Virus record (IMG/VR): IMGVR_UViG_2579778784_000007
Coordinates: 1 to 43,367 of that record
Strand: one strand, 5' to 3'
Source of the DNA: a virus
Lineage: Duplodnaviria > Heunggongvirae > Uroviricota > Caudoviricetes
DNA: 43,367 nucleotides
Shown: in pieces, positions 1,419-43,367 of the stretch
Numbering within the stretch: position 1 is the stretch's first letter
Layout of the letters: each line of letters starts with the position of its first letter
Position numbers and translations under genes: made by a program
The notes under the pieces: model-generated
Seen by the model: the letters and a program-made list of their open reading frames with translations, nothing else
Told to the model about the DNA's origin: nothing
Databases searched by the model: none

Positions 1419-2489
1419 TTATTTGATTTCAATTTTGTCCCACTCCCTGCCTCTGTCATCACGATACTGTGATGCCATGGTGTCCGACTTATGCCCGAGA
1501 AGATGTTGAGCAAACTTATCGCTTATCTGCTTCTCATAGAGTCTTGCAGACAAACTGCGCAACTCGTGAAAGGTAGGCGGATCCCCTTCGAAGGAAAGAC
1601 CTGATGCTTTTCGTGCGCGCATAAAATACCTTGATACTGTGCCGGATGAAAGCGGTTCACGACGAGTAGATGCAATTATGGTTTCTCCGCCAAGAATCTC
1701 TTTGCATTTATCAAGTGTTTCCTTCATTGATATCCCGAGAGCATCAACATGCAATGTTGTAGGGATGGCAATTTTTACGCCCGTTTTGCTTTGCTCGACA
1801 TAAAGATATCCATCTACGATATCAGACCACTTCATTTCGCATAAATCACCAACTCGCTGCCCGGTAACAACAGCCAGTTCCATTGCAAGTCTTAGCCAAC
1901 ATGGTGATGATTCTGCTGCTTGATAAATTTTCAGGTATTCGTCAGCCGTAAGCCTTGATCTCCTTACCTCTGATTTTGCTGCGCGAGTGGCAGCGACCGG
2001 GTTTGTTGTTATATGGCCTTCAGCTATTGCCTCTCGGAATGCATCGCTCAGTGTTGATCTGATTAACTTGGCTGATGCCGCCTTGCCCTCGTCTATGTAT
2101 CCATTGAGCATTGCCGCAATTTCTTTTGTGGTGATGTCTTCAAGTGGAGCATCAGGCAGACCCCTCCTTATTGCTTTAATTTTGCTCATGTAATTTATGA
2201 GTGTCTTCTGCTTGATTCCTCTGCTGGCGAGTATTTTTTCGTAGCGATCAAGCCATGAATGTAACGTAACAGAATTATCACTGTTGATTCTTGCTGTCAG
2301 AGGCTTGTGTTTGTGTCCTGAGAATAACTCAATGTTTGCCTGTATTGCTTCAGTAATTGCTATCCTCCTGTCTCTGCCTAATCCGAACTCTTTACCCGTC
2401 CTTGGGTCCCTGTAGCAGTAATATCCATTGTTTCTTATATAAAGGTTAGGGGGTAAATCCCGGCGCTCATGACTTCGCCTTCTTCCCAT
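1419..2489 (-). CDS. int: Integrase (tyrosine recombinase), lambda Int
   Basis: 356-aa translation MGRRRSHERRDLPPNLYIRNNGYYCYRDPRTGKEF... matches my recollection of lambda Int essentially along its whole length; adjacent to attL P' arm. Confidence 0.97.
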   Translation of the reverse strand: MGRRRSHERRDLPPNLYIRNNGYYCYRDPRTGKEFGLGRDRRIAITEAIQANIELFSGHKHKPLTARINSDNSVTLHSWLDRYEKILASRGIKQKTLINYMSKIKAIRRGLPDAPLEDITTKEIAAMLNGYIDEGKAASAKLIRSTLSDAFREAIAEGHITTNPVAATRAAKSEVRRSRLTADEYLKIYQAAESSPCWLRLAMELAVVTGQRVGDLCEMKWSDIVDGYLYVEQSKTGVKIAIPTTLHVDALGISMKETLDKCKEILGGETIIASTRREPLSSGTVSRYFMRARKASGLSFEGDPPTFHELRSLSARLYEKQISDKFAQHLLGHKSDTMASQYRDDRGREWDKIEIK

Positions 2490-2685
2490 TTCTGATCCTC
2501 TTCAAAAGGCTACCTGTTATTGGTCGATTTAAGTCAACCTTTACCGCTGATTCGTGGAACAGATACTCTCTTCCATCCTTAACCGGAGGAGGGAATATCC
2601 TGCATTCGCGTACCCATCGACGAACTGTTTCAAGGCTTCTTGGGCGTCGCTGGCGTGCGTTCCACTCCTGAAGTGTCAAGTACAT
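2467..2685 (-). CDS. xis: Excisionase, lambda Xis
   Basis: 72-aa MYLTLQEWNARQRRPRSLETVRRWVRECRIFPPPVKDGREYLFHESAVKVDLNRP...; overlaps int start as in lambda. Confidence 0.95.
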   Translation of the reverse strand: MYLTLQEWNARQRRPRSLETVRRWVRECRIFPPPVKDGREYLFHESAVKVDLNRPITGSLLKRIRNGKKAKS

Positions 2686-2710
2686 CGCAAAGTCTCCGCA
2701 ATTACACGCA

Positions 2711-2734
2711 AGAAAAAACCGCCATCAGGCGGCT
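2711..2734 (-). terminator. Intrinsic terminator between the small ORF and xis (lambda tL3-like position)
   Basis: On minus strand: GCCGCC-tgat-GGCGG stem-loop followed by TTTTTTCTT, directly after the stop of the 55-aa ORF. Confidence 0.5.
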
Positions 2735-2892
2735 TGGTGTTCTTTCAGTTCTTCAATTCGAATATTGGTTACGTCTGCATGCGCTATCTGCGCCCATATC
2801 ATCCAGTGGTCATAGCAGTCATTGATGTTCTCTGCTTCGATAACTCTGTTGAATGGTTCTCCATTCCATGCACCTGTGACTCGGAAGTGCAT
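2725..2892 (-). CDS. Small hypothetical protein (55 aa), lambda orf55-like position
   Basis: Not in the supplied ORF track (<60 aa). ATG at 2892 preceded by GGAG; translation MHFRVTGAWNGEPFNRVIEAENINDCYDHWMIWAQIAHADVTNIRIEELKEHQAA; followed by terminator. Confidence 0.45.
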   Translation of the reverse strand: MHFRVTGAWNGEPFNRVIEAENINDCYDHWMIWAQIAHADVTNIRIEELKEHQAA

Positions 2893-3010
2893 TTATCATC
2901 TCCATAAAACAAAACCCGCCGTAGCGAGTTCAGATAAAAGAAATCCCCGCGAATGCGAGGATTGTTATTCATTGCTGATATTCACCCTTATCGCGAACAC
3001 CTTTACCGGT

Positions 3011-3253
3011 TTATCTCCTTTGCATGGCACGTAATTTTTTCAGATGGTTCTCCTGCTCTGTTTCAGCCAGGATCTGGTGATATTCTCTGTGATCAATGTG
3101 TTCGAATAAATTATTGAATTTTCTGATGCACACTCTTCCAGGATAGCCATCCATCCTCTTGAAGAACACTGAGTGATCAGTACTACGAATGATTTTTACT
3201 GGATAGCCAGCGCTATCGGTGTATATCTGACCACGTTGAATCAGAGAGAACAT
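3011..3253 (-). CDS. Hypothetical early-left protein
   Basis: 80-aa ORF in the leftward early operon; no recognisable motif. Confidence 0.5.
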   Translation of the reverse strand: MFSLIQRGQIYTDSAGYPVKIIRSTDHSVFFKRMDGYPGRVCIRKFNNLFEHIDHREYHQILAETEQENHLKKLRAMQRR

Positions 3254-35388: not shown

Positions 35389-35874
35389 TTATCTAATGTT
35401 GCTGCTACTGTTGCATGTGACGGTATTTCCAAATCCTGAATTGCAGTTTGTATAGGTGTCAACACGCGTTGGGTAAGGTTGAGTTATAACAGGCTGTCTC
35501 GCTTTTTGCTCGATCGCTTGCATTGTGTTTACAGCCTGATAATTCAATAAAGCCTGCTGGAATGCTTGGCTTTGTGCTATTTGTTGGGCTTGTTCTTGGC
35601 TTTGTAATTGAACATAAAGATTCTGAAGCTCAAGTCTTGCCTGTGCGTCACTTATCTTGCCTTCATCGACACCTTGCCCGAGCATCTTCGCAGCAAGGAC
35701 ATACAGCTTAGGTGTTGGTGCTGATGCCATGCGTGAGTCGTTCTTCACGCTGGCATCAAGGCAATTAGCCATATCACTAAGCTTTGGATAGCGTTGTTCG
35801 CAACTTGCCTGATAGTCGCTTACTTTTGCGCACCCAGCCAGCAGAAGCGGGATAATTAACAGTGATTTTTTCAT
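35389..35874 (-). CDS. Predicted lipoprotein (candidate superinfection-exclusion factor)
   Basis: 161 aa; signal peptide with lipobox LLAGC; AAGGAGAG SD; encoded antisense to the virion genes in the position of P22 sieA. Confidence 0.7.
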   Translation of the reverse strand: MKKSLLIIPLLLAGCAKVSDYQASCEQRYPKLSDMANCLDASVKNDSRMASAPTPKLYVLAAKMLGQGVDEGKISDAQARLELQNLYVQLQSQEQAQQIAQSQAFQQALLNYQAVNTMQAIEQKARQPVITQPYPTRVDTYTNCNSGFGNTVTCNSSSNIR

Positions 35875-35931
35875 ATAATTAACTCTCCTTAGTTTTGTGC
35901 ATGACGAAATTAACCAGCCATCAGGCTGGTA

Positions 35932-36114
35932 TTAGTCACATTCTATTTCTTTTGTCGACGTCCATACATAAGGGTCTGAGCAAACAACCTCTCCATTTAT
36001 CATGACGTCATAGCCCATTAGATATGAGTTACCACCAACAATCTGAGCGGCGATGACGCTAATGCTGGCGGCGCAGGCTGCACCAAAAACGAAACCAATT
36101 AATATATTTTTCAT
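35932..36114 (-). CDS. Small predicted membrane/secreted protein (60 aa)
   Basis: N-terminal hydrophobic segment [23 protein letters not shown]; immediately upstream of the lipoprotein gene on the same strand; weak SD. Confidence 0.45.
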
Positions 36115-36145
36115 TTTGATTCCAAATAGTTATAGGATGAAAGTT

Positions 36146-36331
36146 ATGACCATAGAAGAACGCCTGAACAACATTGAGTTGAATCAAACCCTGCTTGACC
36201 AGCGACTTTCAGATCTTGAGCTTAAAGATTTGGATGCGCAAATATTAGAAGCAGAGGCCAAGCTCTCCAGCTTAAACCACCGCAAGAAGCAAATCCGCAA
36301 CAGAATTACTCAGGGACGCGGAAGCTGTTGA
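36146..36331 (+). CDS. Hypothetical coiled-coil protein (61 aa)
   Basis: ATG 36146 with AGGA 8 nt upstream; overlaps by 26 bp the 3' end of the minus-strand ORF 36306..36515, so one of the two may be spurious. Confidence 0.3.
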   Translation: MTIEERLNNIELNQTLLDQRLSDLELKDLDAQILEAEAKLSSLNHRKKQIRNRITQGRGSC

Positions 36332-36515
36332 GGTGGGATGCTAGGTCTCTATCGTTAAAATCAAGGCTGCTAATCATTTCATTGTAAATAGCGTTTTTAT
36401 CTTCCATTGGCAGTCTTGAGTAAACCAGACACAGAGCATATTTCAGGGAGTTTAGCTCTTTCTCTAGCTCTTCCTTGCTTGATGTTTTTGACTTAATAAA
36501 CTGTTTTTTATTCAT
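36306..36515 (-). CDS. Hypothetical protein downstream of mnt
   Basis: 69-aa ORF coupled (ATGA-type) to the Mnt-like gene. Confidence 0.4.
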   Translation of the reverse strand: MNKKQFIKSKTSSKEELEKELNSLKYALCLVYSRLPMEDKNAIYNEMISSLDFNDRDLASHLNSFRVPE

Positions 36516-36748
36516 TTTGCATCCTTACCATACATGGTTTTCAGTGTTTCAATCAGCGCATCCCTGAATTTGTCAGCCTCTTTCTGAGCAAATTCATTGC
36601 TATTAAGCGATCTACCACAAACAGCATCTTCGATAATCTGTATTATTTCAGCATTCATGGAACGCTTGTTATGTTGCGCCCTGGCTTTAACCTTTGCCTT
36701 TAACTCTTTGGAAATCCTGATATTTATTTGCGGCTCTTCGCGTGACAT
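36512..36748 (-). CDS. mnt: Mnt-like ribbon-helix-helix repressor
   Basis: EPQINIRISKELKAKVKARAQHNKRSMNAEIIQIIEDAV parallels P22 Mnt DPHFNFRMPMEVREKLKFRAEANGRSMNSELLQIVQDAL; divergent from arc-ant. Confidence 0.75.
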   Translation of the reverse strand: MSREEPQINIRISKELKAKVKARAQHNKRSMNAEIIQIIEDAVCGRSLNSNEFAQKEADKFRDALIETLKTMYGKDAK

Positions 36749-36801
36749 ACCACCTCCATAGCATTTTGGTGATATTACTATTGCATCACTGCGATTACAA
36801 T

Positions 36802-36818: not shown

Positions 36819-36836
36819 AAATTGATTGGAGGTAAT

Positions 36837-37010
36837 ATGATAGTCAAGTCAGACGCACCAAAGTACCCTTTGCGCATCCCATTAGAGGTTAAGTTAGCAA
36901 TCGAGAAGTCAGCGAAAGAAAATGGTCGCTCAATAAATACCGAGATGGTAATGCGGTTAGTGGATAGTTTAAGGCGGGATAGTTCTAAAGGTAATCTAGC
37001 AAAAAGTTGA
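36837..37010 (+). CDS. arc: Arc-like ribbon-helix-helix repressor
   Basis: 57 aa from ATG 36837 (GGAGG SD); PKYPLRIPLEVKLAIEKSAKENGRSINTEMVMRLV parallels P22 Arc PQFNLRWPREVLDLVRKVAEENGRSVNSEIYQRVM. Confidence 0.75.
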   Translation: MIVKSDAPKYPLRIPLEVKLAIEKSAKENGRSINTEMVMRLVDSLRRDSSKGNLAKS

Positions 37011-37072: not shown

Positions 37073-37951
37073 ATGAAAAGTATAGCAAAGGCACAAAACG
37101 ATTTCACCATCTTCAAATTCGGCGACAGTGAAATCCGCGTCATCAACAAGTGCGGTGAGCCGTGGTTTGTAGCTAAAGATGTTTGTGATGCTTTAGCTTT
37201 GACTAACTCACGCAAGGCGCTTACTGCACTTGATGACGATGAAAAGGGAGTAACTTTAAGTTACACCCTTGGTGGTGAGCAGAATCTAAGCATTGTTAGC
37301 GAATCAGGTATGTATACATTGGTTCTGCGCTGCCGCGATGCTGTCAATAAAGGTTCGGTCCCGCACAAATTCCGCAAGTGGGTAACAGCAGAAGTTCTAC
37401 CTTCAATTCGCAAACATGGCGAGTATGTGAAAGGCAAGAAAACCACTGTTGAGGAAAGAACGCCGCTACGCGATGCAGTAAACATGCTGGTAGGAAAGAA
37501 AGGACTTCGCTATGACGATGCATACAATATGGTTCATCAGCGTTTTGGTATTGACAGCATTGATGAACTTTCAATTGAACAAATCCCGCTTGCCGTAGAG
37601 TACATCCACAGGGTAGTGCTTGAAGGTGAGTTCATTGGCAAACAAGAGAAGAAGACCAACGAGCTTTCTGCAAAAGAAGCAAACAGTCTTGTATGGTTAT
37701 GGGATTATGCCAACCGTTCACAGGCATTATTCCGCGAACTGTATCCGGCATTAAAACAAATTCAATCGAACTATTCCGGCAGATGCTACGACTACGGTCA
37801 TGAATTCTCGTATGTTATCGGAATGGCGAGAGACGTTTTAATAAACCACACACGAGATGTTGATATTAATGAGCCAGACGGACCAGCGAATCTTTCCGCA
37901 TGGATGAGACTTAAGAATAAAGAATTACCTCCTTCAGTACATAACTACTGA
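37073..37951 (+). CDS. ant: Antirepressor Ant (Bro-N domain)
   Basis: 292 aa; N-terminal Bro-N-like domain ([28 protein letters not shown]...); downstream of arc as in P22 immI. Confidence 0.82.
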
Positions 37952-38061: not shown

Positions 38062-38562
38062 TTACCTACTCAACAGATGGTCAGCAACCATGTTTGCTGC
38101 CTTATAAGCTATAGCCGCTTCATCAATGGTGTTGAATCTCCCAAGGGTTATGTTTTTACCTGAGACATTTATCTGAGCTTGCCATTGATTTCTGGCTTGA
38201 CAGAAAGTTACCCCCTTGATTCCAGCATTGCTATTTCGAGGTCCGACATTTAATGCATTTACGACTCTGCTGACATCCCTAAGGTTTGAGATTGCGTTAT
38301 TTCTTCTGTTTCTATCAATGTGGTCAATCTCTTGTTTGGGCCATTCGCCATATACATACAGCCAGGCAAGTCTATGTGCAAAATATCTTACGCCATCAAT
38401 ATTAATTGCGTTATATCCATAAGAAATTGTGCCAGCAACTTTCCCAACAGCACCTCTGGCGCTTAATTTCTTTTTCCAAGTGAAAATTCCTGTTTCTTTA
38501 TTGTAATCGAGAACCTCCATAAGGCGCTCCCGAGTTACTACCTCGTGACGTCTCTTACTCAT
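38062..38562 (-). CDS. HNH homing endonuclease with AP2-like domain (copy 2)
   Basis: 166 aa from ATG 38562 (GGAG SD; ORF-track start 38604); HNH motif [19 protein letters not shown]; [13 protein letters not shown] segment parallels copy 1; encoded antisense at the tailspike 5' end. Confidence 0.7.
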
Positions 38563-38575
38563 TATTTTCTCCGGA

Positions 38576-41059
38576 ATGTTTATTATGCCAGAACAATTAT
38601 ACAACGTAGTTGTTTCACAACCAAGTCAGTTATTTACTTTAGCTCGCTCGTTTAAAGCAAATGCCAATGGCAAAATTTATATCGGTAAAATTGACACTGA
38701 CCCGGTAAATCCAGAAAACCAGATTCAGGTTTATGTAGAGAACGAAGACGGCTCTCACGTTCCTGTTTCGCAACCAATCATCATTAACGCTGCCGGATAT
38801 CCGGTATATAACGGACAGATTGCCAAATTCGTTACCGTGCAAGGCCATTCTATGGCTGTTTATGATGCGTATGGTGCGCAGCAGTTTTATTTTCCCAATG
38901 TGCTGAAGTATGACCCCGATCAGCTACGGCAGCAATTAGAAGATCCAGATGGCGCTAAAAAATATCCTGAGTTGCAGATAGCACGATGGAGAGATTGTGG
39001 AGATGTTAGAGGTTGGGGAGCAAAAATAGATGGGGTAACAGATGATTCAGATGCTTTTATTAAAGCTTTAAACTCTGGAAGGTCGGTTATAACAATTCCT
39101 GAAGGAATATGCATCATCAAGAAGAATATTAACATTCCTGAAGGGTGTTCACTGGTTGGATCTGGCATTGATTATTGGGATACATATAGACCAGCGCCTG
39201 AAAGATTATTAAAAAGTTGGAGTAAAGGAACCCATCTTGTATTTACTGGTGATGGAGAAAAAAACAAATATTTTTTTAACATCTCTAATGAAAGACCGGT
39301 TAAAATTGTTGAAGGGATATCTTGTAAGTTCACTGAGTTTACGAATGAAGATTCTGTAGGTGTTACTCCTGCTACACCAAAAGCCATGAGCGTAGCTGTT
39401 AGTATCAACAGGGCATCACAGTTACGCAATCTGAGAATAATGGTAAGTAAAAATGGTATTGAAGGATACAATAACCCTGATTCTTATTCATTGGGTGATA
39501 ACTGGGATATAGGGTTGCATGTATACGATAGCTGTGATTCAGTTATTGATAACGTACAGATTGTCGGCTATTGGAGGGTAAAAGGACTACTACTGACAGA
39601 AAATGACGGGAGCCTTTCAATGAAGGGAAATCCTGAAAAAACGCACTTTAATAACGTTTATGTACAGTCAGGAATCGCGATAAGGAATAGCCCTCAGATT
39701 GATCTTGTAAGTAATACTGAAAGCTCAGTGACATTTAAACATAAAAAGTCGATGAGAATAACTTCAGTTAAACAGTTTAAAATTGCTGGCAGTGAATCAG
39801 TATATACGTATTCAGATGCATCATTTGATGGAACTAATATCACACTATCTGGTATTTCTCCTGAAATACAAGGTTCAATAAGTGTAATCAGGTTTCCGTC
39901 AATTGGTAATAATTTTAGTGGGACTGTTTTTGAGAATACAGTAGCCACTACTCTTGATCATACATCAGGTAAGCCATCAGAATACTTTGGCCTTCCTGCA
40001 TCCTTTGCATTAGAGATTGATGGTTTCCCTGTTCGTAATTTAAGGCTTGATAAATTCAAAGCTCAAACTACCTTTGATAAAGGAAATTGCATTTTTGGTG
40101 ATTGCCGTGATGTTAAAATCACATCATCTGAGTTTGAAAATGGAATTATGATTGCGTATAACCTGACCGAGACTCAGGGTTATACAGGAAATCTTAGATT
40201 TTTTGCTTCTGATCTTCAGAGCAGCGTTAACACAAGCGAGTTTAAACCAAGAGACGCATTTGTAGACAATAGACAAATAAAAACGGAGTTTACTGATGGT
40301 TCTTTCATTATAAAGAACTGGAGGCCTACAGATACAAAAATACAATGGTCGTCTGGAGTGGATGCTATTGTTCTTAGAGAGTCACCTGACGAACAATCAA
40401 ACGGAAATATTTACGGGTATCACATTGATGGTAAAAGATGGATTAATGTTAGTGGATATAACAAAGATATAAATATTTCATCAAGAAACTTAAGCGTAAA
40501 AAACCATAGTGATGACTCCGCAGTTATTAATATATTCGGCGACTCTGGAAATATTGCCATTAAAGGTAATTTTTCACCAATTGTTGATAACAGCAAATCT
40601 CTTGGTGCACCATCATTTAGATGGGCTCAGATTTATTCTGCATCTGGGACTATAAGCACATCAGATGAAACACTTAAAACAATATATGACATTACTCAGG
40701 CAGAGCGTGATGCTGCGCTGGAAATAAAGGGAATTATATGCAAGTTCAGGTTTAATGAGTCGATTAATTTTAAAGGATTGGAGTTATCAAGGTATCATTT
40801 TGGAGTTGGCGCTCAAACCGTAGGGGATATTCTTAGAAAGCATGGTTTAAACCCTGAGCAATATGCTTTTTGGTGTTACGATGAATGGCCAGACGTATGG
40901 GATGAAGAGGTGATAACTGAAGAGAGCACAGATCCTGATACAGGTGAGAAAATTTATTCTCAATATAAAACAGGAAATATGATTCTTGTAAAAAAAGCAG
41001 GTGGACGCTACGGAATTCGTTATGACGAATTGGCTATGTTTATATTAATGGCAATGTAG
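38576..41059 (+). CDS. Tailspike: P22 gp9-like N-terminal head-binding domain, divergent central receptor-binding domain, C-terminal intramolecular chaperone (S74-like) domain
   Basis: N-terminus [53 protein letters not shown]...[12 protein letters not shown]...VLKYDPDQ aligns with P22 gp9 residues ~7..120; C-terminal ~130 aa resemble the auto-cleaving chaperone domain of endosialidase/K5 lyase/T5 fibre, with an S-x4-K dyad at SDETLK (Ser codon 40661..40663). Confidence 0.88.
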
Positions 41060-41651: not shown

Positions 41652-42128
41652 TTAACTAAACATCGCAGTAATCGAGGCACTCGCCAGAGAGTGAAAATGA
41701 ACGTTAAACCCGACCATCGTGCCGCTGGCACCTTCATCGACATCAATACGTTCTACATCCAGCGCGTGAACGGTAAAAATGTAGCGATGGGTTTCGCCTT
41801 TCGGCGGCGCTGCGCCATCGTATCCGGTTTTACCAAAGTCGGTACGCGTCTGCAAAACGCCGTCTGGCATTGCTACCAGACCAGAGCCAAACCCTTGCGG
41901 TAATACGCGGGTATCAGCGGGTAAATTAACAACTACCCAGTGCCACCAGCCGGAGCCGGTTGGCGCATCCGGGTCGTAGCAGGTGACAACAAAACTTTTC
42001 GTTCCCACAGGAACATCATCCCACGCCAGATGCGGTGAAATATTATCGCCATCGTAACCCATGCCGTTAAAGACATGACGATGCGGCAGCTTATCGCCAT
42101 CGCGCAGATCGTTACTGATGAGTTTCAT
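41652..42128 (-). CDS. ybhB: YbhB, PEBP/RKIP-family protein (host gene)
   Basis: 158 aa MKLISNDLRDGDKLPHRHVFNGMGYDGDNISPHLAWDDVP... recalled as E. coli YbhB, the right-hand neighbour of attB-lambda. Confidence 0.88.
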   Translation of the reverse strand: MKLISNDLRDGDKLPHRHVFNGMGYDGDNISPHLAWDDVPVGTKSFVVTCYDPDAPTGSGWWHWVVVNLPADTRVLPQGFGSGLVAMPDGVLQTRTDFGKTGYDGAAPPKGETHRYIFTVHALDVERIDVDEGASGTMVGFNVHFHSLASASITAMFS

Positions 42129-42236: not shown

Positions 42237-43367
42237 ATGAAACGCGCATATAAATACCGGTTTTACCCGACAACTGAGCAGGCTGAGCTTTTAGCTCAGA
42301 CGTTTGGCTGTGTGCGCTTCGTCTACAATTCCATCCTTCGTTGGCGTACCGATGCGTACTACGAGCGAAAAGAAAAGATCGGTTATCTACAGGCCAACGC
42401 TCGCCTTACGGCGCTCAAAAAAGAGCCTGAATACATATGGCTGAATGATGTTTCCTGCGTTCCCCTCCAGCAGTCGTTGCGCCACCAACAAGCCGCCTTT
42501 GCTAACTTCTTTGCTGGACGAGTTGCATATCCGGCTTTCAAAAGCAAACGGCACAAACAGGTGGCTGAGTTCACTGCCAGCGCGTTTAAACACCGTGACG
42601 GCGAGTTGTATATAGCAAAGAGCAAGTCGCCGCTGGATGTTCGCTGGAGTCGAGAATTACCATCTGCGCCGTCAACCGTTACCATTTCCAGAGATAGCGC
42701 TGGCAGGTACTTTGTTTCCTGCCTGTGTGAGTTTGAACCTGTATCAATGCCTGTTACCGCTAAAACGGTCGGCATTGATGTGGGCTTAAAAGATTTATTC
42801 GTCACCGATACCGGATTCAAAACCGACAATCCCCGCCACACCGCTAAATATGCGAAGCGATTAACGCTGCTACAGCGACGTTTAAGCAGGAAGCAAAAAG
42901 GCTCAAGAAACCGTATTAAAGCCCGCTTAAAGGTCGCCCGACTCCACGCGAAAATCGCCGATTGCCGGATGGACAATCTGCACAAGTTGTCCCGCAAACT
43001 GATTAACGAAAACCAAGTTGTTTGCGTCGAATCCCTCAAGGTGAAAAACATGATCCGCAACCCGAAGCTGTCTAAAGCAATAGCTGACGCAGGCTGGAGC
43101 GAACTTGTTCGCCAGCTCCAGTACAAAGGCAAATGGGCCGGGCGGTCAGTGGTCGCCATTGACCAGTATTTACCGTCCTCAAAATGCTGTAGTTGCTGCG
43201 GTTTCACCATGCAAAAAATGCCTCTTAATGTTCGTAAATGGCACTGCCCTGAATGCGGCGCAGACCATGATCGCGACATTAACGCGGCACGTAATATTAA
43301 AGCTGCCGGGCTGGCAGTGTTAGCCCACGGAGAGCCTGTAAACCCTGAATCGCAGCACGCGGCTTAG
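42237..43367 (+). CDS. tnpB: TnpB (IS200/IS605-family RuvC-like, RNA-guided nuclease type)
   Basis: 376 aa ending at the window edge with TAG; RuvC-like motifs (GIDVGLKDL; VCVESLKVKNM; HDRDINAARNI) and zinc finger CCSCC...HCPECG; no tnpA in window. Confidence 0.85.
   Translation: MKRAYKYRFYPTTEQAELLAQTFGCVRFVYNSILRWRTDAYYERKEKIGYLQANARLTALKKEPEYIWLNDVSCVPLQQSLRHQQAAFANFFAGRVAYPAFKSKRHKQVAEFTASAFKHRDGELYIAKSKSPLDVRWSRELPSAPSTVTISRDSAGRYFVSCLCEFEPVSMPVTAKTVGIDVGLKDLFVTDTGFKTDNPRHTAKYAKRLTLLQRRLSRKQKGSRNRIKARLKVARLHAKIADCRMDNLHKLSRKLINENQVVCVESLKVKNMIRNPKLSKAIADAGWSELVRQLQYKGKWAGRSVVAIDQYLPSSKCCSCCGFTMQKMPLNVRKWHCPECGADHDRDINAARNIKAAGLAVLAHGEPVNPESQHAA

Follow-up and report, generated by a model that had tools for sequence, protein, structure and literature searches.

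Here we describe two small genes of a P22-like (Lederbergvirus) Escherichia coli prophage, the virus record IMGVR_UViG_2579778784_000007, which was analyzed over its full 43,367 nucleotides (hereafter, the window). The genes lie side by side on the minus strand between the gene for the gp16-type ejection protein and an mnt-like repressor gene, and they encode a 161-amino-acid (aa) lipoprotein and a 60-aa protein that we call the miniprotein. We find that they are independent prophage accessory genes (“morons”) in a hypervariable gene 16-mnt slot, and we propose the lipoprotein as a candidate, open to testing, for a new phage-exclusion protein. It is very likely that both are envelope cargo genes that are expressed in the lysogen and carried in a swappable slot. 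Superinfection exclusion as the job of the lipoprotein is possible rather than probable, and the explanation that we favor as a whole, in which these are independent envelope morons and the lipoprotein is an outer-membrane-anchored periplasmic exclusion factor, has a probability of about 0.42.

The two genes are separate modules at the sieA position

The gene order in P22 is gene 16, sieA, orf59a and mnt (the last three on the minus strand), followed by arc, ant and gene 9. The window has the same arrangement, with the slot on the opposite strand between its homologs of genes 16 and 9. A preliminary description of this DNA was therefore correct to place the two genes at the sieA position, and the strand, sizes, coordinates and LLAGC lipobox that it gave agree with the open reading frames (ORFs) found on the minus strand. 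The interval between homologs of genes 16 and 9 is also how the sieA position has been defined previously (PMC10883804).

The same description had treated the genes as a two-gene cassette, and this view did not survive comparison with other genomes. Of the complete E. coli genomes, 219 match the 752-bp region and carry either gene, and only 3 of them cover both genes and have them adjacent; a conserved operon was therefore rejected. By DNA comparison, the lipoprotein module (35389 to ~35897) is common to phages Gally, 720R6, and VSe13, and the miniprotein module (35881 onward) is common to Kapi1, where a different 103-aa signal-peptide protein comes next. Gally and prophages of O104:H4, Serratia, Morganella, and Proteus carry the lipoprotein without the miniprotein. 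Conversely, the miniprotein is found without the lipoprotein, both together with the type-B sieA gene (sieA-B) and far outside phages, and most P22-like phages have neither gene.

The lipoprotein gene is present in about 170 of 5,426 complete E. coli genomes, including LF82, O104:H4, and enterohemorrhagic E. coli (EHEC)-type strains. Its surroundings within the slot vary. It directly follows mnt in Serratia, in Proteus phage Brookers, and in the EHEC-type strain TW08637, follows mnt plus a 104-aa gene in O104:H4, and lies behind a divergent gene in Gally/LF82; in Morganella it adjoins gp16 and the immunity-I genes are wholly absent. Throughout the P22-like phages of Escherichia, Salmonella, Serratia, Morganella, and Proteus, the lipoprotein gene always adjoins gp16 in convergent orientation, and sieA was found in none of these loci. 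More distant relatives are carried as cargo by P4-like satellites, after an integrase-AlpA-primase set, and on phage-like contigs.

A constant junction precedes swappable genes

The lipoprotein module has a constant left boundary, which is made up of the miniprotein stop codon, an 18-nucleotide (nt) hairpin and a linker with a Shine-Dalgarno sequence. The hairpin starts 1 nt past the stop codon, is followed by TAATTT, and has a fold energy of -18.1 kcal/mol (z = -2.86). It was not called by a terminator scan, and it could be a weak terminator or an mRNA-stabilizing stem. In an alignment of the junction (A5; window region 35885..35934, with loci L041-L053 at 3175..3240), the hairpin sequence is near-identical in nine loci with differing downstream genes, and two of these share a single stem substitution, G to T. 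The complete linker, TAATTTCGTCATGC(A/T)CAAAACTAAGGAG, is shared by seven of the nine loci, and divergence sets in at the start of each downstream gene. The segment CAAAACTAAGGAG thus forms the last constant bases ahead of the swappable gene, at the edge of the mosaic module.

Across 14 IMG/VR prophages, the gene downstream of a near-identical miniprotein gene differs, and at least five different genes are found there. The lipoprotein follows the junction in the window and in L051, a member of the Kapi1_059 family in L040, L046, and L053, and a SieA-like gene in L048 and L050, whose product is 28% identical to P22 SieA across 148 residues, as has been reported for type B. Apart from the lipoprotein gene and the SieA-like gene, four further genes follow an identical junction; the remaining occupants include several small genes, and most alternative occupants have an N-terminal signal peptide or membrane anchor. 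Likewise, the sieA-B module of other genomes begins inside the linker, as does the lipoprotein module in TW08637 and VSe13. Because the junction DNA is identical, the lipoprotein gene and sieA-B are alternative occupants of a single site and use the same translation signals, and the miniprotein-hairpin-Shine-Dalgarno junction looks like a plug-in site for single-gene cassettes. Type-B SieA of prophage HS1 matches P22 SieA in its exclusion of P22-like phages, and SieA escape mutations map to gp16 and gp20 (PMC10883804). Ejection proteins are thus probably the target class for exclusion proteins of the gp16-mnt slot.

One group of occupants is a family of ~104-aa signal-peptide proteins that includes Kapi1_059 and the O104:H4 104-aa protein (47-52% identical). 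Its genes are found after mnt or next to gp16 (L002 2691..2999 for Kapi1_059; L021 4011..4325; L041-L051 at 2457..2768). The Kapi1 authors reported that “hyp19” was undeletable and that plasmids with its flanks were toxic in non-lysogens (PMC8787464). By a count of hypothetical proteins, hyp19 is the gp16 homolog Kapi1_058, so that the flank would include Kapi1_059 and perhaps Kapi1_060, the miniprotein gene. Kapi1 also has an O-antigen modification.

The lipoprotein is conserved and has a predicted outer-membrane anchor

The N-terminus of the lipoprotein, MKKSLLIIPLLLAGC, has a basic n-region, a hydrophobic core and the lipobox LLAGC, and it agrees with the signal peptide plus lipobox pattern of bacterial lipoproteins ([LVI][ASTVI][GAS]C). 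Cys15 is invariant among 29 close homologs (alignment A1), and a lipobox-like motif is present in 72 of 74 members of the wider family. The residue at +2 is Ala in the window protein and A, T, V, S, I, L, Q, F, or G elsewhere in the family; none of the 74 members has Asp. Under the Lol sorting rule of Enterobacteria, a +2 residue other than Asp directs a lipoprotein to the outer membrane. Lipidation is thus predicted at Cys15 as the mature N-terminus, and sorting to the outer membrane is predicted from the Ala at +2. The signal peptide is the only hydrophobic stretch of the protein (maximum KD19 1.32 at residue 5).

The 94 cluster representatives of the lipoprotein family come from many Enterobacterales (Escherichia, Citrobacter, Serratia, Cronobacter, Klebsiella, Pectobacterium, Yersinia, Morganella, Providencia, and Tatumella), a homolog is also found in a Proteus phage, and a further profile search added few distant members. 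The window protein matches phrog_6067 over its full length (E 2.6e-110, positions 1-161 of 161); this is its only PHROG match, and the family is without functional annotation. A codon-level comparison gave pairwise dN/dS values of 0.04-0.06 across both genes, with 0.055 for the miniprotein. Both ORFs are genuine genes under strong purifying selection and not chance ORFs, as the full-length PHROG matches, diverged homologs, low dN/dS and lipobox conservation together demonstrate.

An AlphaFold2 model built from a deep alignment has a mean pLDDT of 87.6 and presents a soluble helical protein; a model from close homologs alone (pLDDT 60.8) was superseded by it. The model has a small helical N-domain (residues 18-70) with the invariant Cys25 and Cys38, a single 50-residue helix (76-125) that is 34% Gln, a Pro-rich linker, and a C-terminal beta-hairpin (strands 139-146 and 152-159) with a Cys144/Cys154 pair. 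Exactly four cysteines in addition to that of the lipobox are found in 59 of the 74 family members. The family alignments show that the N-domain is conserved and that helix length and hairpin sequence vary. The last ~30 residues (codons within 35389..35500) come in at least three versions, which end in ...CNSSSNIR, ...CQSY, and ...CNSSY, and the first two of these both occur within Serratia and again within Citrobacter. The gene is thus internally mosaic, with a conserved part for the N-domain and helix and a variable C-terminus.

The preliminary description had found neither protein recognizable, and database searches bear this out. Scans against Pfam (E <= 0.1), NCBIfam, and PADLOC gave no usable match for either protein, and the Pfam scan returned nothing for any of the 74 lipoprotein family members; PHROGs were scanned at E <= 0.01. 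The sole NCBIfam line for the window proteins was GspK, at 18.9 bits against a cutoff of 130, and such sub-threshold similarity explains a stray “GspK” label on one Cronobacter homolog. A sequence-profile search of the PDB with the lipoprotein returned only WTAP (E 0.55), Foldseek with the model found nothing at E <= 0.001 in the PDB or BFVD, and a literature search by protein accession found nothing.

The miniprotein is probably a secreted peptide with a wide distribution

The N-terminal hydrophobic segment that had been noticed in the 60-aa protein looks like a cleavable signal peptide of residues 1-22. As expected of a signal peptidase I substrate, it combines a basic n-region with a hydrophobic core and has small residues at positions -3 and -1, with predicted cleavage between VIA and AQ. 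DeepTMHMM notes in the Kapi1 record likewise give “signal 1-22” for Kapi1_060, which is 98% identical to the miniprotein. The first 22 residues vary among homologs, and the A/V-x-A site is kept in 12 of 13 (alignment A3). Because the hydrophobic core is long (KD19 2.36), the protein could also stay as an uncleaved membrane anchor. With the lipobox of the lipoprotein and the A/V-x-A site of the miniprotein, both products are targeted to the envelope by conserved export signals, as the earlier secreted/membrane reading had it.

The mature part of 38 aa is highly conserved. Its family motif is GYLxGWDV...CSDPYVW...EIECD, of which the C-terminal portion, C45-SDPY-x-W...EIEC59-D, is invariant and contains both invariant cysteines (C45 and C59). 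Judged from these features, the miniprotein is probably a separate secreted, disulfide-bonded peptide. It matches phrog_37095 at full length (E 2e-46, positions 1-60 of 60), another PHROG family without functional annotation, and its family has 14 cluster representatives. Copies with 50-62% identity are found in a Xenorhabdus P22-like prophage and as isolated genes in metagenome-assembled genomes of alpha-, beta-, and deltaproteobacteria, Acidiferrobacterales, Saccharimonadales, and Eremiobacterota. The relatives overall, including those on non-P22-like viral contigs, are 42-63% identical (loci L033-L039 and L054-L059), and no Pfam family matches any of the relatives examined. As a best guess, the miniprotein would protect the envelope from some conserved threat.

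The start codon (ATG) of the miniprotein gene overlaps the stop codon of mnt in Citrobacter prophages. These prophages also have an uncalled 115-aa ORF (L004 5241..5588, plus strand) between the miniprotein gene and a terminator-like hairpin, with a signal peptide, Cys pairs and the C-terminus CNQFGCN. RefSeq calls a longer antisense ORF in some genomes and therefore misses the miniprotein. In WCHEC050613 at least, this antisense call of 92 aa overlaps the start of the miniprotein gene, which has no annotation there. The family thus illustrates how a conserved small secreted protein can be absent from current annotation.

The main rival to exclusion is toxin immunity, in which one or both proteins would be orphan immunity proteins against antibacterial toxins that act in the periplasm, such as type VI secretion system (T6SS) effectors or bacteriocins, and would shield the lysogen in competition with other bacteria, not from phages. 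We regard it as unlikely. Small signal-peptide proteins and lipoproteins are the usual form of immunity proteins in the periplasm, and the small miniprotein gene, which stands isolated and is highly conserved in many phyla, has this in common with many orphan immunity genes. The small exported proteins of the Rap1a/Tai T6SS immunity group are similar in kind, and one of them is encoded in the mnt-led operon of a sister prophage: in E. coli WCHEC050613, one of few genomes to carry the lipoprotein too, the Rap1a gene (PF18602, 55 bits versus a cutoff of 27.7; L027 3965..4300, minus strand) overlaps the mnt stop codon. Furthermore, on the non-P22 viral contig L059, a Rap1a-like gene (2539..2976) lies directly upstream of a miniprotein homolog, after a primase-polymerase gene. 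However, neither window protein matches PF18602 or resembles any Pfam immunity family, an hhalign comparison of the lipoprotein family with the Rap1a protein gave a probability of 1.5%, and a cognate effector gene is absent nearby. Immunity proteins usually co-vary with their effectors, whereas the mature miniprotein is nearly invariant across phyla. Exclusion also accounts better than immunity for the strict adjacency of the lipoprotein gene to gp16 and for its interchange with sieA at a single junction. Immunity therefore suits the miniprotein, with its cross-phylum spread, near-invariant mature part and coexistence with sieA-B, more than it suits the lipoprotein.

An ortholog of the lipoprotein gene is transcribed in a lysogen

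The preliminary description had named a lack of expression in lysogens as something that would speak against exclusion. For the lipoprotein this objection falls away, since its ortholog GALLYPH_13 (prophage Gally of E. coli LF82; 98.8% identical) is transcribed in the LF82 lysogen. The values come from the reanalysis of RNA-seq data (GEO GSE154648; S1/S4 tables, in units of log2(fpkm+5)) in a study of LF82 (PMC9928086). In overnight lysogeny broth (LB) cultures, GALLYPH_13 is at 6.29 and 5.96, and it is at 7.9-8.2 in two other conditions, B1 and B6. In macrophages, it reaches 10.3 at 1 h and 8.6 at 6 h (log2 fold change 2.55, q = 4.7e-27), with a rise of ~18-fold over LB. The neighboring gp16 gene of Gally stays at background (3.6-4.2) throughout (PMC9928086). 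GALLYPH_13 is thus transcribed in the lysogen independently of the late operon, given that the adjacent ejection-protein genes are at background.

The two genes of the window are presumably transcribed as well. A candidate Pmnt, TTGTAA-17-TAATAT, lies upstream of mnt at 36772..36800, with the -35 element at 36795..36800 and the -10 element at 36772..36777. The mnt-orf69-miniprotein region of Kapi1 is 98.5% identical to that of the window, and Kapi1_059-062 are not among the genes listed as unexpressed (PMC12922286).

The expression data bring in another explanation, in which the lipoprotein, like lambda Bor/Iss, would contribute to host fitness or virulence, for example to survival in the macrophage vacuole, and would have no anti-phage role. 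The climb of GALLYPH_13 from ~6.1 in LB to 10.3 at 1 h in macrophages is in its favor, as is the presence of the gene in adherent-invasive E. coli LF82, O104:H4, enterotoxigenic E. coli B7A, and large EHEC-type genomes. However, the five rightmost Gally genes are induced jointly, so the macrophage response belongs to the region and is not specific to GALLYPH_13. An LF82 gut CRISPR interference screen names other Gally genes in its text and not GALLYPH_13, Pfam Bor was unmatched at E <= 0.1, and the family also occurs in soil, plant, and insect Enterobacterales as well as in metagenomic phages and satellites. A host-fitness role is therefore rather improbable.

A proposed exclusion mechanism and the points against it

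The lipoprotein and P22 SieA occupy the same slot, which adjoins gene 16, is convergent with it, and lies between homologs of genes 16 and 9. In different prophages, the same junction also precedes either the lipoprotein gene or a type-B-like sieA, and both kinds of product are envelope proteins that the prophage expresses or is expected to express. The two proteins nevertheless differ in sequence (BLASTP, no alignment) and in topology, because SieA is a polytopic inner-membrane protein, whereas the lipoprotein has a predicted outer-membrane anchor and no hydrophobic segment other than its signal peptide. The cytoplasmic SieA motif FxRYPxEAxxFNK (FGRYPGEANGFNK in P22) is absent from both window proteins. 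For SieA, exclusion has been proven; for the lipoprotein, it is a candidate function.

Lipoproteins that keep phages out are known from other systems. Cor (phi80, N15, and HK022) and Llp (T5) are outer-membrane lipoproteins that block FhuA, and Ltp of Streptococcus phage TP-J34 binds the tape measure protein and blocks DNA injection. The preliminary description had suggested a search for homology to exclusion lipoproteins such as Cor and Llp, and no Cor-, Llp-, Bor-, or exclusion-annotated family was matched in the Pfam and PHROG scans. In addition, the predicted fold of the lipoprotein (helical domain, long helix, and hairpin) is without a match in the PDB or BFVD. Ltp is, like the proposed function of the window protein, a prophage lipoprotein that acts after adsorption on an incoming DNA-delivery protein. 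However, it serves a Gram-positive host and targets the tape measure protein of a siphophage, not podophage ejection proteins, and the lipoprotein again matches no exclusion-annotated family and no solved or viral predicted structure. The lipoprotein would at most act in the way of SieA, Cor/Llp, or Ltp, and it falls outside all of them by sequence and fold; its gene is best regarded as a prophage-encoded gene for envelope protection.

The lipoprotein could instead act in the manner of Cor and Llp by masking an outer-membrane (secondary) receptor, in which case adsorption or triggering would fail rather than DNA transit. It is a predicted outer-membrane lipoprotein with an ortholog that is expressed in a lysogen, and Cor and Llp are phage-encoded lipobox lipoproteins that keep related phages out at the envelope of the carrier cell, prophage or phage lipoproteins of a similar kind (cited in PMC10883804). 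Several observations nevertheless make receptor masking quite unlikely. With 147 mature residues and a long helix, the window protein is much larger than Cor or Llp. Cor and Llp are carried by FhuA-dependent siphophages, whereas the carriers here are tailspike podophages that bind O-antigen, and the gene swaps with sieA, which acts after adsorption.

Under the exclusion explanation that we favor, the lipoprotein would be processed by Lgt, LspA, and Lnt and then moved by Lol transport to the inner leaflet of the outer membrane. From there, the 50-residue helix would extend the variable, disulfide-bonded C-terminal hairpin into the periplasm, where it may disturb the trans-envelope conduit formed by the ejection proteins (gp7, gp20, and gp16) of a superinfecting P22-like phage. 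Alternatively, it may interfere with an outer-membrane event just before conduit assembly. The lipoprotein would thus be a functional stand-in for SieA that acts from the outer-membrane side and has no SieA homology. A more far-reaching version, in which the junction is a plug-in slot for envelope-defense cassettes, the lipoprotein founds a new exclusion class that acts at the outer membrane, and the miniprotein is a broad periplasmic protectant whose target would be universally conserved, is doubtful.

A number of points weigh against the exclusion explanation. Neither SieA likeness by sequence or fold nor an exclusion-annotated Pfam or PHROG family was found. The shared slot amounts to guilt by association, and the gp16-mnt slot is not reserved for exclusion, since in E. 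coli WCHEC050613 its operon includes a Rap1a T6SS immunity gene. Two relatives of the lipoprotein lie in ordinary chromosomal neighborhoods. The co-occurrence of the miniprotein with sieA-B and its cross-phylum spread argue against a phage-specific role for that protein. In LB, GALLYPH_13 has 70 normalized counts versus a prophage median of 15.6 (PMC9928086); because this 4.5-fold excess is below their 5-fold cutoff, the LF82 authors left the gene unscored as a moron. The five right-end Gally genes that rise together in macrophages include mnt and the tailspike gene (PMC9928086). Between mnt and the lipoprotein gene, no strong promoter or terminator was found, only weak candidates, and mnt transcripts were not detected in Kapi1 lysogens (PMC12922286), which also speaks against simple read-through from Pmnt.

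If exclusion is true, the lipoprotein at the sieA junction would serve as a second means, soluble and amenable to structural work, of studying how the ejection proteins of podophages traverse the periplasm. Since its gene is common in E. coli, it may affect the host range of phages used in therapy and competition among gut prophages. Furthermore, reading what follows the hairpin-Shine-Dalgarno junction offers a simple way to mine additional envelope-defense genes. The constant-junction cassette structure and an unannotated miniprotein family that spans phyla both go beyond what the preliminary description contained.

Gene order around the slot

The virion and ejection-protein genes of the window extend up to gp16, and they are followed by the immunity-I-type region and then by the tailspike gene (Table 1). 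The minus-strand run begins with the mnt-like gene and ends with the lipoprotein gene, whose stop codon is separated by 2 nt from that of the convergent gp16 gene. A spacer of 57 nt divides the miniprotein gene from the lipoprotein gene.

Table 1. Positions of the prophage features discussed in the text
Feature	Coordinates	Strand	Basis or remarks
Integrase	1419..2489		
Lysis cassette (holin, endolysin, Rz, Rz1)	18991..20103		Rz 19654..20103; Rz1 embedded, 19859..20050
gp16-type ejection (DNA-transfer) protein, 707 aa	33263..35386	+	ORF; annotation of matching records; Phage_P22_gp16 Pfam matches in related loci
Lipoprotein gene, 161 aa	35389..35874	-	ORF; phrog_6067
Lipobox codons L12-A13-G14-C15	35830..35841	-	Sequence
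Linker CAAAACTAAGGAG with Shine-Dalgarno sequence	35885..35897	-	Alignment A5; module ends
7-bp hairpin ACCAGCC-TGAT-GGCTGGT	35913..35930	-	18 nt; fold energy
Miniprotein gene, 60 aa	35932..36114	-	ORF; phrog_37095
Antisense 61-aa coiled-coil ORF, gene status uncertain	36146..36331	+	phrog_7586
orf69	36306..36515	-	ORF; phrog_16466
mnt-like Arc/ribbon-helix-helix repressor gene	36512..36748	-	Pfam Arc, 5.7e-13
arc	36822..37010	+	
ant	37073..37951	+	
Tailspike	38576..41059	+	

The gene order also bears on whether the two genes could act in the phage's lytic cycle, with the lipoprotein as an o-spanin-like lysis protein or with products that are virion or assembly components. The genes are near the block of virion genes, and Rz1 spanins are also small lipoproteins. 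However, the window has a complete lysis cassette that includes Rz and an embedded Rz1, both genes are on the strand opposite to the late operon, the ortholog is transcribed while late genes are at background, and most P22-like phages lack the genes. The o-spanin reading was rejected because Rz and Rz1 lie within the lysis cassette and the lipoprotein gene is on the other strand at a distance of 15 kb. For practical purposes, a role in lysis or in the virion is excluded.

The stop codon of the mnt-like gene is overlapped over 4 nt by orf69, which has a homolog (39% identical) at the same relative position in a Xenorhabdus prophage and is without an export signal. BLASTP found no match of the miniprotein or orf69 to P22 orf59a. 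The lack of detectable mnt transcription in Kapi1 is odd for an immunity-I repressor, and it bears on how genes downstream of mnt are expressed.

A stretch of 190 nt between orf69 and the miniprotein gene carries the antisense 61-aa ORF, which diverges from the miniprotein gene, with 31 nt between the two start codons, and is present with the miniprotein in every E. coli-type locus. BLASTP gave no similarity between it and the Xenorhabdus ORF of the same position. RefSeq gives the label “hemolysin XhlA family” to the 92-aa form of this ORF (36053..36331, plus strand), and we rejected the label because Pfam XhlA scores 10-12 bits against a cutoff of 34.7.

Three other genes lie to the right of the slot. 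An HNH/AP2 homing-endonuclease-like gene (38062..38604, minus strand) is found between ant and the tailspike gene, where it overlaps the tailspike start by 29 nt, and Kapi1 has such a gene at the equivalent place. Beyond the tailspike gene are a 158-aa ORF of unknown function (41652..42128) and a transposase ORF (42237..43367, plus strand; phrog_506, E 3e-158) that continues past the right end of the window.

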